Part shown: piece after piece, positions 59,551-64,000 of the stretch | Layout of the letters: the number at the start of each line of letters is the position of its first letter | Numbering within the stretch: the stretch's first letter is position 1 | Source: a phage | Strand: one strand, 5' to 3' | DNA length: 64,000 nucleotides | Sequence record: PZ402301.1 | Made by a program: the position numbers and the translations under genes | Notes under the pieces: generated by a model | Told to the model about the DNA's origin: nothing | The model's database searches: none | The model's input: the letters and a program-made list of their open reading frames with translations, nothing else

Positions 59551-62500
59551 ATGGCTACTTTAAAACAAATACAATTTAAAAGAAGCAAAACTGCAGGAGC
59601 ACGTCCTGCCGCTTCAGTATTAGCCGAAGGTGAATTGGCTATAAACTTAAAAGACCGCGTACTTTTTACTAAAGATGACCAAGGAAATATCATTGATCTT
59701 GGTTTTGCTAAAGGCGGTAGCATTGACGGGAATGTTATTCATATAGGAAACTATAATCAAACTGGTGATTATACTTTAAATGGTACCTTCACTCAAACCG
59801 GTGATTTCAATTTAACTGGTATTGCTCGAGTAACTCGCGATATTATTGCCGCCGGGCAGATTATGACTGAGGGTGGAGAACTTATTACAAAAAGTTCAGG
59901 TACATCGCATGTTCGTTTTTTCGATGGCAATAGCCGCGAACGTGGAATCATTTATGCCCCGGCTAATGATGGATTAACTACGCAAGTAGTTAATATCCGC
60001 GTTCAAGACTACGCCGCTGGTGATGAAAGCACCTATGCATTTTCAGGCAGTGGCCTATTTACTTCACCTGAAGTATCAGCATGGAAATCTATTTCATCTC
60101 CACAAATTCTGACCGATAAAGTTATTACAAATGGGAAGAAGACAGGCGATTATGATATCTATTCATTAGCAAATAACACTCCGTTGGCAGAAAGCGAAAC
60201 GGCTATTAACCACCTCCGTGTTATGCGAAATGCCGTAGGATCTGGTATATTCCATGAAGTTAAAGATAACGACGGGATAACCTGGTACGCCGGTGACGGG
60301 TTAGATGCCTATCTTTGGTCGTTTACCTGGTCCGGTGGATTGAAAGCAGGCCATTCTATTTCTATAGGTCTTCCGGGCGGCTCTAAAGGATATTCTGAAT
60401 TAGGGACTGCTTCAATTGCTCTTGGTGATAATGATACCGGATTTAAATGGCATCAGGACGGATATTTTCATACAGTAAACAACGGAACAAGAACTTTCAT
60501 TTACGGTCCTGCGGAAACACAAAGCCTTAGAAAAATGGTTATGGGTTATTCTCCGGATGGGATTCTTATGACAACGCCACCGACAGAAAACTATGCATTA
60601 GCCACTGTTGTTACTTATCATGATAATAACGCGTATGGCGACGGTCAGACTCTTTTAGGTTATTATCAAGGCGGTAATTATCATCACTATTTCCGTGGTA
60701 AAGGTACTACAAACATTAATACTCACGGCGGTTTGTTAGTTACTCCCGGTAATATTGACGTTATTGGTGGTTCTGTTAATATTGATGGTAGTAATAATGC
60801 TTCTACGCTGATGTTTAGAGGTAACACAACTGGTAGCAGTTCAGTTGATAATATGACAATTTCTGTATGGGGTAATACGTTTACTAATCCTAGTGTAGGT
60901 AATCGTAAAAATGTCATGGAAATTTCTGACGCAACTAGCTGGATGAGTTATATTCAAAGACTTACTACCGGTGAAGTAGAAATGAACGTCAATGGTTCAT
61001 TTGAATCATCCGGTGTTACTGCTGGAAATAGAGGAGTTCACACAACAGGCGAAATTTCATCTGGAGCAGTGAATGCGCTTCGCATTTGGAATGCAGATTA
61101 TGGAGCCATTTTTAGACGTTCAGAAGGCAGTCTTCATATTATTCCAACTGCTTACGGTGAAGGTAAACATGGCGATATCGGTCCACTTCGCCCGTTTAGT
61201 ATGGCTTTAGATACTGGTAAAGTTACTATTCCAGATTTACAATCAAGTTACAATACGTTCGCAGCAAACGGCTATATTAAATTTACTGGTCACGGTGCAG
61301 GCGCTGGTGGTTATGATATTCAGTATGTTCAAGCAGCTCCTATTTTCCAGGAAATTGATGATGATGCTATAAGCAAATATTATCCTATTGTTAAACAGAA
61401 GTTTTTAAACAGTAAAGCGGTTTGGTCTTTAGGTACTGAAATTAATTCGGGTACATTTGTTTTACACCATATCAAAGAAGATGGATCACAAGGCCATACG
61501 TCTCGTTTTAATCAAGACGGTACTGTTAACTTCCCGGATAACGTTCAGGTCGGTGGTGGTGAAGCTACTATTGCTCGAAATGGTAATATCTGGTCTGATA
61601 TTTGGAAACCGTTTACTTCTGCCGGTGATACTACAAATATTCGCGATGCTATTGCGACTCGTGTTTCGAAAGAAGGCGACACGATGACCGGTAAATTGAC
61701 TTTATCGGCAGGCAATGATGCTCTTGTTTTAACTGCAGGCGTGGGTGCTTCATCGCACATCCGTAGTGATGTAGGTGGTACAGGTAACTGGTATATAGGC
61801 AAAGGCGGCGGCGATAATGGTCTAGGTTTTTACAGTTACATTACACAAGGCGGTGTATACATAACAAATAACGGCGAAATATCGCTTTCTCCTCAAGGTC
61901 AAGGAACATTTAATTTTAATAGAGACCGCCTTCATATAAACGGTACACAGTGGACTGCGCACCAAGCTGGCGATTGGGCAAACCAATGGCGACAAGAAGC
62001 GCCGATATTTGTAGATTTTGGCTACGTCGGCAATGACTGCTATTATCCTATTATTAAAGGAAAATCTGTTATTACGAATGAAGGATACGTATCTGGTGTT
62101 GATTTCGGTATGCGCCGTATCACTAACCAATGGGCTCAGGCTATTATCCGTGTTGGTAACCAGGAAAATGCTAGCGATCCGCAAGCTATCTTCGAATTCC
62201 ACCATAATGGAAACATGTACGTTCCTGACATGGTTAAAGCTGGAGTAAGAATATCAGCTGGTGGAGGTGACCCTGCATGGACAGGCGCATGTGTTGTTAT
62301 TGGTGATAATGACACTGGGTTAGTTCATGGCGGTGACGGTCGTATTAACATGGTTGCAAATGGAATGCATATTGCTTCATGGTCGTCCGCTTACCATCTC
62401 CATGAAGGTCTTTGGGATACCACTGGTGCTTTGTGGACTGAACAAGGAAGAGCTATTATTTCTTTTGGTCATTTAGTCCAACAAAGCGATGCCTATTCCA

Positions 62501-62862
62501 CATTTGTCCGCGATGTTTATGTCCGTTCTGATATTCGTGTTAAAAAAGACCTTGTTAAATTTGAAAATGCTTCTGAGAAGCTTTCTAAAATTAACGGTTA
62601 CACTTATATGCAGAAGCGAGGCCTAGATGAAGAAGGAAATCAGAAATGGGAACCTAACGCCGGTTTGATAGCTCAAGAAGTTCAAGCTATTTTACCTGAA
62701 TTAGTTGAAGGTGACCCTGATGGTGAAGCTTTACTTCGTTTGAACTATAACGGTGTAATTGGTTTAAATACAGCTGCAATCAATGAGCATACTGCAGAAA
62801 TTGCAGAACTTAAATCAGAAATCGAAGAACTTAAAGCATTAGTTAAATCATTGTTAAAATAA
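59551..62862 (+). CDS. 37: long tail fibre distal subunit gp37 with C-terminal intramolecular chaperone/autoprotease module
   Basis: 1103 aa; N-terminal region as in T4 gp37; C-terminal about 110 aa (SDIRVKKD...[15 protein letters not shown]...coiled coil) resemble self-cleaving chaperone domains of phage fibres. Confidence 0.92.
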
Positions 62863-62866
62863 TAAG

Positions 62867-62882
62867 AGGGGCTTCGGCCCCT
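62867..62882 (+). other. AGGGGC-UUCG-GCCCCU hairpin between gene 37 stop and gene 38 RBS
   Basis: 6-bp GC stem with UUCG tetraloop 5 nt after gene 37 stop; no strong U-run, overlaps the region immediately 5' of the gene 38 start. Confidence 0.45.
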
Positions 62883-62893
62883 TGGGGGTTTAT

Positions 62894-63670
62894 ATGGCAG
62901 TAACAGGACCGTGGGTAGGATCGTCTGCAGTAGTTAATACAGGACAAAATTGGATGGGTGGCGCGGCCCAACGATTAAGAATGGGCATTCCGTTTTGGAT
63001 GAGTAATATGATAGGTCGATCTGTTGAAATAATTCACACGCTTGGAGCAGACCATAACTTCAATGGTCAATGGTTCCGAGATAGATGTTTTGAGGCAGGT
63101 AGTGCACCTATAGTGTTTAATATCACCGGAGATTTAGTATCATATTCTAAAGATGTTCCTTTATTCTTCATGTACGGAGATACACCAAATGAATATGTTC
63201 AACTGAATATACACGGTGTAACGATGTATGGCCGTGGCGGGAATGGCGGTAGCAATAGTCCTGGCTCAGCTGGAGGTCATTGTATTCAAAATGATATTGG
63301 TGGGAGACTAAGAATTAATAATGGCGGAGCTATTGCTGGCGGCGGTGGCGGCGGCGGTGGCGGATATTATTCTCCTTTTTCACAAATGAGATTGACATTT
63401 GGCGGTGGTGGCGGTCGTCCGTTTGGCGCGCCGGGCGGATCTATTGATATGCAATCAGGAGCAACTGCCGGTACTATTTCTGCGCCTGGCGCAGGGTCTG
63501 TGAACGGTATCTATAGCGGCGGGTCTGGTGGTGAAGTTGGCTCCGCAGGAGGTAGATGTAATATTCGTGGTCAAGGATATGAATACGATGGCGGAGCTGC
63601 TGGTTATGCCGTCATAGGGTCTACGCCAACGTGGCAAAACGTTGGAGCAATATATGGTCCAAGAGTATAA
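62894..63670 (+). CDS. 38: gp38 receptor-recognising adhesin (T2-type, glycine-rich motifs)
   Basis: ORF-track start 62882 is TTG; ATG at 62894 gives 258 aa with multiple glycine-rich motifs ([52 protein letters not shown]) separated by variable segments. Confidence 0.85.
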
Positions 63671-63700: not shown

Positions 63701-64000
63701 ATGGCAGCACCTAGAATATCATTTTCGCCCTCTGATATTCTGTTGGGTGTTCTAGATCGCTTGTTCAAAGATAACGCTACCGGGAAAGTTCTTGCTTCCC
63801 GGGTAGCTGTCGTAATTCTTTTGTTTATAATGGCGATTGTTTGGTATAGGGGAGATAGTTTCTTTGAGTACTATAAGCAATCAAAGTATGAAACATACAG
63901 TGAAATTATTGAAAAGGAAAGAAATGCACGCTTTGAATCTGTCGCCCTGGAACAACTCCAGATAGTTCATATATCATCTGAGGCAGACTTTAGTGCGGTA
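63701..64000 (+). CDS. t: holin t (5' partial, continues beyond window)
   Basis: ATG at 63701 preceded by AGGAGGG; translation MAAPRISFSPSDILLGVLDRLFKDNATGKVLASRVAVVILLFIMAIVWYRGDSFFEYY... matches T4 holin N-terminus including the single TMD. Confidence 0.9.
   Translation, partial: MAAPRISFSPSDILLGVLDRLFKDNATGKVLASRVAVVILLFIMAIVWYRGDSFFEYYKQSKYETYSEIIEKERNARFESVALEQLQIVHISSEADFSAV

Follow-up and report, generated by a model that had tools for sequence, protein, structure and literature searches.

From its sequence, the gene at 62894-63670 of the window (the whole 64-kb stretch of phage DNA that was analysed) encodes a T6/T2-type gp38 long-tail-fibre adhesin. The reading favored here, with a probability of close to nine in ten, is that this protein contains a polyglycine-II (PGII) sandwich, is a probable Tsx binder, and carries a tract of nine glycines (Gly9) that serves both as the length-fixed helix of its second glycine-rich motif (GRM2) and as a site of rare indels. 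The gene is an ordinary, previously annotated gene of a T6-like coliphage, and nothing here alters the established view that gp38 is a modular adhesin. What is added to this well-studied family is a tract that is length-constrained, indel-prone and the fastest-changing at synonymous sites, together with misalignment of GRM2 and GRM3, from which loop-B deletions and duplications probably arise in nature. A receptor prediction also has practical value since Tsx adsorption bears on forecasts of host range and resistance in therapeutic use.

The gp38 ORF begins with an ATG at 62894 on the (+) strand and ends with a TAA stop at 63670 (258 aa), which are the coordinates of the CDS annotated as 'receptor-recognizing protein gp38' in PV390659.2. 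A TTG start at 62882, given in the ORF list, was rejected as an artefact of the mechanical listing, since S16 gp38 and every relative begin MAV/MAI at the ATG. The gene lies directly 3' of g37 and 5' of holin t, the position expected in the T-even late tail-fibre operon, and the annotation of the identical record gives the gene order gp34-gp35-gp36-gp37-gp38-t. The three genes are as follows.

59551-62862, (+) strand: gp37, distal long-tail-fibre subunit of 1103 aa, forming the trimer capped by gp38 (PF13884, PF21446)
62894-63670, (+) strand: gp38 receptor-recognising adhesin CDS (Pfam, PHROG and PDB matches, nucleotide identity to vB_EcoM_P8)
63701-64000, (+) strand: 5' part of holin gene t, which extends beyond the window (Pfam Phage_holin_T, E 5e-46)

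In PV390659.2, the first of these is labelled 'long tail fiber protein Gp37' and the position of the t gene is annotated 'holin'. The C-terminal Peptidase_S74 intramolecular-chaperone domain of gp37 spans aa 993-1052.

With 100% nucleotide identity, the gp38 gene matches both the annotated gp38 of Escherichia phage vB_EcoM_P8 and BMB16. A megablast search with the gene matched 386 phage records, 21 of which are Yersinia phage records. The protein matches Pfam families GP38 (PF05268, 240.5 bits against a cut-off of 25, aa 45-258, with the profile covered end to end) and Gp38_N (PF21721, 76.6 bits against a cut-off of 25, aa 1-40), as well as PHROG 2056 (E 2e-110). Sequence matches in the PDB were PP01 gp38 (9v85, E 4.5e-81) and S16 gp38 (6f45_D, E 6.7e-52). 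Some database homologues, including those of T6, RB18, JSE and KP15, bear the T4-derived label 'distal long tail fiber assembly catalyst', according to which the product would be a non-structural chaperone and no virion adhesin. This is extremely improbable for the window protein: the T4 gp38 sequence is very unlike that of the S16-type adhesin (PMC6851490), while the window protein falls in the adhesin Pfam families and matches both solved adhesin structures, one of which is a complex with the gp37 tip. The T4-type chaperone label was therefore rejected as an annotation carry-over.

The domain layout follows the GRM/HVS scheme of Trojet 2011 (PMC3157838) and was read from alignments of 17 and 120 relatives. 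In the C-terminal half, five GRMs separate four hypervariable segments (HVSs); the Gly blocks at aa 113-118, 150-154, 170-178, 210-219 and 237-242 are invariant. All features are on the (+) strand.

62894-63025, (+) strand: N-terminal attachment domain, aa 1-44, predicted by homology to dock on the gp37 trimer (PF21721)
63026-63232, (+) strand: beta-helix core, aa 45-113 (AF2 strands, pLDDT ~87-96 over most of it)
63233-63253, (+) strand: GRM1, aa 114-120 GRGGNGG, approximate boundary (invariant G113, R114, G115, G116, G118)
63254-63337, (+) strand: HVS1 region, aa 121-148, including a conserved strand running into GRM2 (alignments)
63338-63364, (+) strand: GRM2, the Gly9 tract, aa 149-157 (S16 gp38 alignment, pLDDT ~94-95)
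63365-63400, (+) strand: HVS2, aa 158-169 (position matches the distal loop-B of PP01 gp38)
63401-63427, (+) strand: GRM3, aa 170-178 GGGGGRPFG, containing the Gly5 tract 63401-63415 (invariant in alignment A1)
63428-63514, (+) strand: HVS3, aa 179-207, approximate boundary (aa identity comparison)
63515-63553, (+) strand: GRM4, aa 208-220, approximate boundary (invariant G210, G212, G213, G219)
63554-63589, (+) strand: HVS4, aa 221-232, approximate boundary (aa identity comparison)
63590-63667, (+) strand: GRM5 and conserved C-terminal strands returning to the beta-helix, aa 233-258 (alignment, AF2 strands)

The first-pass annotation had described a T2-type receptor-recognising gp38 in which Gly-rich and non-Gly segments alternate. 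The Pfam, PHROG and PDB matches and the GRM/HVS layout agree with the former, and a protein of 24% Gly whose GRMs are separated by HVSs bears out the latter.

The AF2 model of gp38 (pLDDT = 83.7) superimposes on 9v85 with a TMt of 0.88 and an rmsd of 2.2 Å, and on 6f45_D with a TM of 0.80-0.83. When the model was searched against the PDB, the same two structures were returned (9v85, E 6e-27; 6f45_D, E 2e-20; TM 0.76-0.88) and nothing further was found under E = 6. The predicted fold is thus a beta-helix with a PGII sandwich. In the proposed arrangement, the first ~44 residues with their three conserved Trp would dock on gp37, residues 45-113 and the C-terminus would form the beta-helix, and residues ~114-240 the PGII sandwich. 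The GRMs would be tightly packed, backbone-hydrogen-bonded PGII helices and the HVSs distal loops that touch an outer-membrane beta-barrel, most probably Tsx. In alignment A1, W7 and W20 of the attachment domain are invariant, with W35 conserved to at least 90%; the insertion of the three Trp into gp37 is known from the S16 structure 6F45 (PMC6851490). The GRM5/C-terminal region contains the invariant residues G237, A239, V240, G242, P245, W247, G251, Y254 and G255. HVS2 is predicted to be a beta-hairpin (E157-162/E165-170 in the AF2 model).

Three sets of characterized adhesins serve for comparison. The gp38 proteins of T6, RB27 and RB3/RB5 (Trojet et al. 2011) share the gene position, a length of 258-261 aa, the five-GRM/four-HVS layout and Gly9 in GRM2. 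Over the whole protein, the window gp38 is 97% identical to RB27 and 86% to T6; its N-terminal domain is the 'MAVTGPW' allele of RB27, whereas T6 and RB3 have 'MAVVGVPGW'. S16 gp38 (PDB 6F45, Dunne et al. 2018) has the same three domains, attachment Trp and PGII sandwich, with its helix 151-158 corresponding to Gly9; it differs in sequence (44% identity by structural alignment), in having Gly8 and a shorter HVS2, and in targeting Salmonella OmpC. The best structural match is the receptor-binding domain of PP01 gp38 (PDB 9V85, mBio 2026; 67% identity). Its loop-B comes after the poly-Gly helix, as does HVS2 in the window protein, and loop-B (Q161-V170) is required for OmpC recognition (PMC12892980). 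Unlike the window protein, PP01 gp38 has Gly8 and other HVS sequences (HVS2 is 16% identical) and binds O157 OmpC.

The variable segments point to a receptor. Over the specificity domain (aa 114-258), amino acid identity reaches 98% with RB27 and RB3/RB5 and lies at 93-95% with T6, FL23/FL44, WilhelmHis and KarlGJung; taken together, seven Tsx-assigned adhesins show 93-98%, as opposed to 41-82% for the OmpA, OmpC and T2 types. RB27, RB3/RB5, T6, FL23/FL44, WilhelmHis and KarlGJung are reported as Tsx users (PMC3157838, PMC12032242, and PMC13353012 citing Maffei 2021). RB27 and RB3/RB5 have exactly the same HVS1, HVS2 and HVS3 (100% identity), and their HVS4 is 91% identical. The HVS2 sequence is also shared with FL23 and KarlGJung. 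By segment, the HVS1 region has 96% nt identity to Ac3-type genes versus 54-75% to the OmpA-type-1, OmpC and T2 types, HVS3 has 20-68% aa identity to the OmpA, OmpC and T2 types, and HVS4 has 83-91% to Tsx-type relatives versus 0-66% to others. In clustering at 90%, the window gp38 groups with RB27 and FL23. Since the specificity domain is 98% identical to that of the Tsx users RB27 and RB3/RB5, the receptor is most probably Tsx. The comparison of variable segments that had been recommended as a check on this gene thus indicates the T6/Tsx type.

A receptor other than Tsx, or Tsx together with another such as OmpA or a Yersinia outer-membrane protein, is quite unlikely. Small changes can matter in this family: PST, three HVS residues away from T6, additionally requires OmpA, and Mi, which has only HVS1 in common with T6, uses OmpA (PMC3157838), while a single HVS substitution in RB68 (Q206L) changes the receptor from OmpF to OmpW (bioRxiv 10.64898/2026.04.02.716166). 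The Yersinia phage records among the megablast matches would also fit a second receptor. Two substitutions separate the window protein from RB27 within the specificity domain; one lies in GRM4, and the other, in HVS4, is Y229 where RB27 has S. However, Y229 is also found in the 155-member cluster P0002 with RB3/RB5 and WilhelmHis, the first three HVSs are unchanged from Tsx users, and gp38 phylogeny consistently predicted the receptor in Lutz 2025 (PMC12032242). The main text of a 2026 receptor-screen preprint gives no direct assignment for EV151 or RB27.

The Gly9 tract consists of the codons GGC GGC GGT GGC GGC GGC GGT GGC GGA at 63338-63364, or (GGCGGCGGTGGC)x2 + GGA. TRF describes it as a 12-nt unit GGCGGCGGTGGC repeated 2.2 times with a 100% match or, alternatively, as 8.7 imperfect GGC units with an 82% match. 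An earlier placement of nine Gly codons at 63330-63365 had the count right and the limits wrong, as that interval also takes in 8 nt from the Ile-Ala codons ahead of the tract and 1 nt from the Tyr codon behind it. The same annotation had noted a GC-rich Gly tract amid AT-rich DNA, and the G+C content is indeed 89% in the tract compared to 47.5% in the gp38 gene and 36.5% in the window. The most G+C-rich 27-mers in the 64-kb window lie in the tract, and no (GGN)n run on either strand is longer. Its high G+C content stems from a marked bias towards GGC/GGT within Gly runs, where GGC makes up 54% and GGA 7% of the codons used, as opposed to 15% and 31% in the other long ORFs of the window.

A poly-Gly tract of 7-9 Gly was present in all relatives examined, down to 38% identity, and is therefore no chance feature. 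Gly9 aligns to S16 gp38 151-GGGGGGGG-158, a region that forms the long PGII 'helix 3' of the PGII sandwich (PMC6851490). By homology, the tract is thus predicted to be GRM2, the long central PGII helix, and no flexible spacer; this assignment rests on homology and not on measured geometry because PGII has no label in DSSP. If packing of the helix admits only Gly and the length of the helix sets the register of loop-B (HVS2), then the tract would be kept pure in Gly and fixed in length, as we propose.

The poly-Gly tract is both the most length-constrained and the most indel-prone element of gp38. In a survey of 250 unique gp38 proteins by adhesin class, Gly9 occurred in 97/101 T6-like, 79/80 Ac3-like and 5/5 M1-like proteins (181/186, >97%), Gly8 occurred in 35/35 of the IAYRP class, and no expansion beyond nine Gly was found among the 250. 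Nor was a net length change found in >30 full-length megablast matches at 88-100% identity. Nine codons were also kept in each of the 27 DNA-level relatives examined from the Gly9 classes, yet with 20 different third-position strings. A metagenome scan with the pattern GGAGCTATTGC-N{10,40}-TATTATTCTCC gave few matches, four of them true gp38 sequences, all with Gly9, and three due to chance. Scans of viral contigs gave 13 loci with a single-protein query and 41 with an alignment query, many of which duplicate the first set. When 201 complete proteins were each compared with their nearest neighbour, roughly half of the separate internal indel events found among close relatives involved the 27-nt tract. 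The length variants are contractions to Gly7 (three times), Gly6 and Gly4. Every variant turned up in just one or a few sequences, and among the variants L020 has an additional in-frame stop. The tract-length and HVS2-deletion variants come mostly from short-read assemblies (Logan/ENA) and could be defective minority genomes or artefacts. In T6, no viable phage was recovered when either GRM2 or HVS2 was deleted (PMC3157838). Gly9 is the principal place in the gene for rare in-frame indels, and purifying selection would clear nearly all products of indel formation and exchange.

At synonymous sites, the tract behaves differently. Third-position diversity is ~2-fold above that of the rest of gp38 in a comparison of phylogenetically non-independent sequences, and nucleotide identity is 77-88% at the tract compared to 94-97% in its flanks, so that no other part of the gene is less conserved at such sites. 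The raised diversity could come from a different codon-selection regime within Gly runs and not from a higher mutation rate. A register-shift test was weakly positive, with a Levenshtein/Hamming ratio of 0.817 against a null of 0.863 +/- 0.020.

GRM2 also has a partner, the Gly5 tract, 63 nt downstream. Deletions of HVS2, the segment between them, exist among gp38 relatives, and the deletion junctions of L014-L020 lie inside GGY repeats. Two independent tandem duplications of HVS2 were identified in Yersinia phages ZN18 and PYps47T, both of which carry hybrid Gly tracts and were isolated on Y. pseudotuberculosis. No further HVS2 duplication was found in 50,697 phage records by tblastn with the PYps47T protein. 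In a megablast search with the duplication junction, ZN18 was the sole single-piece match, the other rows at 100% coverage being joined overlapping pieces. A literature search on ZN18 found no discussion of its gp38. Microhomology-mediated unequal exchange between GRM2 and GRM3, by which HVS2 would be lost or doubled, may be the source of both kinds of variant. PYps47T lyses 52/128 Y. pseudotuberculosis strains while siblings without the duplication lyse 78-87 (PMC8762354).

The tract might instead be viewed as a hypermutable contingency repeat, in which frequent slippage or exchange makes functional variants and drives host-range change. A perfect 12-nt tandem repeat, the share of indel events that fall in the tract, the contractions, the HVS2 duplications of the two Yersinia-isolated phages, the third-position diversity and the register-shift signal would all fit such a view, and the phase-variable contingency loci of bacteria and some phages likewise have a short tandem repeat in a surface-recognition gene. 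It is nevertheless improbable given the constancy of nine Gly, the absence of expansion, the scarcity of variants, the non-viable T6 deletions and the narrower strain range of PYps47T. Unlike contingency loci, the gp38 repeat is interrupted, is limited to 2.2 x 12 nt and is fixed in length among relatives; since it is in-frame, a frameshift switch is impossible. Repeat-number polymorphism of the kind expected among close genomes was not seen, given nine Gly in 181/186 proteins, nor was a long uninterrupted repeat with reversible switching. The first-pass annotation had named the tract as a hotspot for slippage or exchange. This stands as far as about half of the indel events among close relatives, the HVS2 events and the mosaic boundaries at GRM1, GRM2 and GRM5 are concerned, and does not stand with regard to a length that is nearly invariant and never expanded. 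A reshuffling of the variable segments was further suggested; that slippage does this as a routine way of changing host range is not borne out by the length survey, the rare variants, the T6 deletions or the predicted PGII helix.

Mosaicism is another matter. Identity boundaries are found at GRM1, GRM2 and GRM5. Compared to IME340 and ST2, identity is 93-96% up to HVS1, 33-36% in HVS2 and 88-93% at the C-terminus; compared to Sfk20, it is 96-98% through the beta-helix and 71% from GRM1 onward. The attachment domain exists as separate alleles (~60% or 94-98% nt identity), and the beta-helix core is 93-96% identical in most of the Tequatrovirus relatives compared, irrespective of HVS class. An identical stretch of 28 upstream aa plus Gly9 is joined to four HVS2 classes. 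Exchange at glycine-rich motifs is already in the literature, where Tetart et al. 1996/1998 put it forward (cited in PMC3157838). In the Krisch-lab model, the GRMs are homology linkers for swaps of HVS cassettes during co-infection and Gly9 would mainly be a crossover site. The sharp segment-wise boundaries, the four HVS2 classes behind one upstream sequence and the earlier placement of exchanges in or near conserved motifs make this possible, if doubtful, as the main role of the tract. Against it, the low conservation of the tract at synonymous sites argues that it is not kept as DNA-level homology, and the Gly9 and Gly5 tracts of the window share exact words of 8 nt only. As a substrate, the long near-identical stretch upstream (aa 45-148) is far better, and it accounts equally well for the boundary on the GRM2 side. 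In addition, none of 14 selected RB5 x RB32/33 chimeras had crossed over between GRM1 and GRM5 (PMC3157838).

A stronger role may also be imagined for the two Gly tracts, in which GRM2 and GRM3 act as a low-frequency device for cassette indels of loop-B, the HVS2 duplication is adaptive on Yersinia and the synonymous excess is a footprint of slippage. Recurrent slippage in the tracts, with length changes repaired by selection, would then leave the ~2-fold excess. The origin of both duplications in Y. pseudotuberculosis phages and the weakly positive register-shift test would fit such a role. We regard it as unlikely, and if true, the HVS2 duplications would parallel events known from T4. Tetart et al. 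are said, in work of 1996 cited in PMC3157838, to have described T4 gp37 duplications that are flanked by conserved His-box motifs and extend host range. By analogy, a specificity loop would be doubled in ZN18 and PYps47T by misalignment of flanking motifs. The T4 case differs in that it concerns another protein and other flanking motifs, and the window gp38 carries no duplication. A host-range benefit, as described for the T4 gp37 duplications, would be hypothetical for those of gp38 (PMC8762354).

Rfam and tRNA scans of the window gave no matches. The space between g37 and g38 contains one further feature.

62867-62882, (+) strand: g37/g38 intercistronic hairpin AGGGGC-UUCG-GCCCCU with a C(UUCG)G tetraloop (sequence)

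RNA folding in a 46-nt context gave -14.1 kcal/mol (z = -1.3), and the equivalent position in phage G10400 is annotated 'putative transcriptional terminator'. A GGGGG Shine-Dalgarno-like run lies 3' of the hairpin, 6 nt ahead of the gp38 ATG.

The gp38 gene and the two glycine tracts within it are located as follows.

62894-63670, + strand: gp38 open reading frame, ATG to TAA, 258 aa, 24% Gly
63338-63364, + strand: Gly9 tract, nine consecutive Gly codons (GGC GGC GGT GGC GGC GGC GGT GGC GGA)
63401-63415, + strand: Gly5 tract, downstream of Gly9

A TTG start at 62882, proposed by an ORF lister, was rejected as mechanical since the proteins of all relatives, the crystallised one of S16 among them, open with MAV/MAI at the ATG. 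GenBank already carries an annotation of the gene; its architecture, like recombination linked to its glycine-rich motifs (GRMs), is textbook knowledge for T-even phages. All 777 nt are identical to the 'receptor-recognizing protein gp38' CDS of Escherichia phage vB_EcoM_P8 (PV390659.2), which is preceded by gp34, gp35, gp36 and gp37 and followed by holin t, asiA, arn and motA. Among the 386 phage records matched by megablast, phage BMB16 is likewise 100% identical; RB27 (94.7%) and FL23/FL44 (90.6%) are also among the matches. The protein occurs on 23 contigs of a public protein collection and shares a 90% cluster with RB27 and FL23.

The first-pass annotation was correct in recognizing a T2-type gp38. 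Pfam GP38 (240.5 bits) and Gp38_N (76.6 bits) and PHROG 2056 ('tail fiber protein; host specificity', E 2e-110) all match the protein, as do the sequences of the PP01 gp38 receptor-binding domain (9v85, E 4.5e-81) and S16 gp38 (6f45_D, E 6.7e-52); the downstream ORF is a Phage_holin_T by Pfam. An AlphaFold2 model calculated from an input alignment of 17 sequences (pLDDT 83.7) resembles 9v85 (TMt 0.88, rmsd 2.2 Å) and 6f45_D (TM 0.80-0.83), and a fold search of the PDB with this model returned no third match (next hit E = 6). Sequence, gene context and predicted fold uniformly place the protein in the T2/T6-type gp38 family, with a putative virion location and putative receptor use.

The alignment of variable segments suggested earlier for receptor prediction was carried out segment by segment, comparing HVS1-4 and the specificity domain (aa 114-258) with receptor-assigned adhesins, and pointed to a Tsx type. 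HVS1, HVS2 and HVS3 are 100% identical to those of RB27 and RB3/RB5, and the specificity domain is 98% identical to theirs and 93-95% identical to those of T6, FL23/FL44, WilhelmHis, KarlGJung and T4_ev151. Identity falls to 41-82% against OmpA (FL12, EV240, M1, FL08, AV119), OmpC (PP01-like) and T2-like types, with only 8-25% in HVS2. Tsx is the receptor of RB27, RB3, RB5 and T6 (PMC3157838), of FL23 and FL44 (PMC12032242) and of WilhelmHis, KarlGJung and Paracelsus (PMC13353012 citing Maffei 2021). Given this near-identity, Tsx is the most likely predicted receptor, with the caveat that receptor use can change or broaden through one to three HVS substitutions (PMC3157838; bioRxiv 10.64898/2026.04.02.716166).

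The S16 structure contains a three-layer 'polyglycine sandwich' in which the GRMs form left-handed polyglycine-II (PGII) helices, held together by a saturating network of backbone hydrogen bonds, and the HVSs serve as distal receptor-binding loops; its long PGII helix 3 is '151-GGGGGGGG-158' (PMC6851490). The Gly9 run (aa 149-157) aligns with these residues 151-158 by HMMER, and its modeled pLDDT is ~94-95. In PP01 gp38, loop-B (Q161-V170) comes immediately after the poly-Gly helix, and OmpC recognition depends on residues 158-170 (PMC12892980); similarly, HVS2 here (aa 158-169), a predicted β-hairpin, sits at the loop-B position. From this homology and the high local pLDDT, the Gly9 tract is predicted to be a structural element and not a linker.

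The run of nine Gly codons had been noted earlier at 63330-63365; the run itself is confirmed, within a slightly narrower span (63338-63364). As also noted, it is GC-rich in an AT-rich genome (89% G+C vs 36.5% for the window). The tract holds the most G+C-rich 27-mers of the 64 kb, exceeds every other (GGN)n run of both strands in length and contains a perfect 12-nt unit, GGCGGCGGTGGC, repeated 2.2 times (TRF). Gly codons within runs of at least five (the window tracts and 27 related genes) are GGC 54%, GGT 35%, GGA 7% and GGG 4%, compared to 15%, 49%, 31% and 5%, respectively, in the window's other long ORFs. G homopolymers do not exceed 2 nt anywhere in the Gly9 tract, and 63331-63420 contains no GGAGG. 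We infer that the GGY preference holds G-runs to two bases and prevents GGAGG, which would limit frameshift-prone homopolymers and Shine-Dalgarno-like sites, and that it produces the local G+C peak.

Tract length was surveyed in all unique gp38 proteins whose GRM2-GRM3 segment could be recognised; none of these 250 has a Gly run longer than nine.

Length of the Gly run by adhesin class
T6-like: 9 in 97/101; others 7, 7, 7 and 6
Ac3-like: 9 in 79/80; one Gly4
M1-like: 9 in 5/5
IAYRP (OmpA-type): 8 in 35/35

At the DNA level, nine codons are found in 27/27 relatives of the Gly9 classes, and every full-length megablast hit at 88-100% identity (more than 30) is exactly 777 nt. Indels were mapped by comparing 201 complete unique proteins, each with its nearest neighbour, in pairs at least 90% identical. 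Of ~20 distinct internal events, eight touch the Gly9 tract, which is 3.5% of the gene: four contractions, two HVS2 deletions and two tandem duplications of HVS2 with a Gly tract. In proteins P0008 and P0029, HVS2 is lost and Gly9 is fused to Gly5; the same deletion occurs in P0014 and P0115 (both N-terminally incomplete), and P0113 lacks both HVS2 and GRM3. No T6 progeny with GRM2/3/4 or HVS1/2/3 deleted were recovered among 220 screened (Trojet et al., PMC3157838). From the length conservation, indel clustering and viability data, the Gly9 tract is where mutation in the gene most readily gives indels, nearly all of which selection would then remove, so that slippage is no routine generator of diversity. 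The earlier proposal of a slippage or recombination hotspot therefore has partial support as a mutational tendency and fails as a means of functional diversification. Our confidence in the overall explanation of the gene and tract is about 0.88. Contingency-repeat status was tested for the tract and rejected.

Public short-read assemblies (loci L014:1927-1974, L015, L016/L017, L020:1298-1348 and L021) show fused Gly tracts with HVS2, or HVS2 and GRM3, deleted. The L020 variant has an in-frame stop, and L014 adjoins a gp37 of 477 aa instead of the usual ~1100; such assemblies may be defective or laboratory-derived genomes. A further repeat-bounded in-frame deletion in gp38, 15 aa between two WMSQ direct repeats of the attachment domain, is seen in protein P0160 (cluster of P0004), which also has Gly7.

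The in-frame tandem duplications of HVS2 and a Gly tract lie in T6-type gp38 genes of Yersinia phages vB_YepM_ZN18 (MN716856, L002:1951-2079; 51 nt) and PYps47T (MT515755, L091; 54 nt), both isolated on Y. pseudotuberculosis and the sole carriers among 50,697 phage records. The duplicated region reads Gly9-HVS2-Gly5/6-HVS2-Gly5. In each phage the middle tract is a G5/G9 hybrid formed across microhomology (14 and 11 nt), and since the two hybrids differ, the duplications are independent. The PYps47T paper lists just 'an insertion of 15 aa' and reports lysis of fewer Yersinia strains than by insertion-free siblings (PMC8762354).

Synonymous sites in the tracts are also unusually variable.

Mean pairwise third-position diversity in 20 unique T6-type genes
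Gly9 tract: 0.39
Gly5 tract: 0.47
Other Gly codons: 0.21
Other four-fold sites: 0.18

The excess over the other four-fold and Gly sites of aa 45-258 has a Mann-Whitney p = 5e-5, with sites and sequences non-independent. Twenty distinct third-position strings occur in 27 Gly9 genes, and the window differs from its seven nearest full-length relatives at 2-8 of the tracts' 42 nt (0.9-2.4 expected). This diversity fits recurrent slippage with length restoration: a codon-register test was weakly positive (Levenshtein/Hamming 0.817 vs 0.863 ± 0.020 for shuffles, 1.6% of which reach the observed value), and the window string turns into that of GEP001 if one GGT codon is lost and one GGC codon gained. 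Diversity would likewise be raised if codons inside Gly runs were under a selection regime of their own, and codon use indeed differs there (GGC 54% vs 15%, GGA 7% vs 31%). Possibly new, and outside the window, are the indel concentration at GRM2, the two HVS2 duplications, the raised turnover at synonymous sites and the preference for GGC within Gly runs.

Nucleotide comparisons revealed a mosaic gene. For IME340 and ST2, which carry Ac3-like HVSs, identity to the window is 93-96% over aa 45-148, 33-36% in HVS2 and 88-93% at the C-terminus; for the PP01-like Sfk20 it is 96-98% up to aa 113 and 71% from GRM1 on. Attachment-domain alleles, 53-62% or 94-98% identical, segregate independently. 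Tetart et al. 1996/1998 and Trojet et al. describe such gp38 mosaics (PMC3157838), and the pattern agrees with a CM8 x EV240 recombinant in which exchange was limited to the part 'from HVS2 onwards' (bioRxiv 10.64898/2026.04.02.716166). Because synonymous sites of the Gly9 tract show poor conservation and the words that this tract shares with the Gly5 tract are only 8 nt in the window, homology for the boundary on the GRM2 side is more plausibly provided by the long near-identical 5' half. Crossovers between GRM1 and GRM5 were found in 0/14 selected RB5 x RB32/33 chimeras (PMC3157838).

Gly9-bearing gp38-type adhesins were also seen on ~106-112-kb E. coli/Shigella and ~224-kb Salmonella contigs (loci L018, L019 and L021; clusters of P0065, P0098 and P0114). 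A 73-aa ORF, not a T-even gp37, precedes the adhesin gene in all three loci read, and the N-terminal domain is also matched by Salmonella phage SSU5. These contexts suggest that the adhesin module has spread past Straboviridae, perhaps with phage-plasmids as recipients. Some database labels look wrong: OM982647.1 (phage ST2), a 171-kb T-even-like genome, is placed under Guernseyvirinae/Kagunavirus, and PJZ22119.1 (P0002), the gp38 representing a 155-member coliphage cluster, is named Bacillus cereus, probably through contamination.

A tRNA scan of the 64-kb window found no tRNA genes, and an Rfam scan no family scoring above the gathering threshold. Upstream, gp37 carries a C-terminal Peptidase_S74 domain ('chaperone of endosialidase', Pfam; aa 993-1052, 62527-62706), which implies a putative autocleaved intramolecular chaperone just before the gp38-capped region. 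The stretch that separates the gp37 stop from the gp38 start contains a hairpin, AGGGGC-UUCG-GCCCCU (62867-62882), with a C(UUCG)G tetraloop and followed by a GGGGG ribosome-binding-like run. Since it lacks a clear U-tract, this hairpin may be mRNA-stabilising; the same intercistronic spot in phage G10400 is annotated as a putative terminator.
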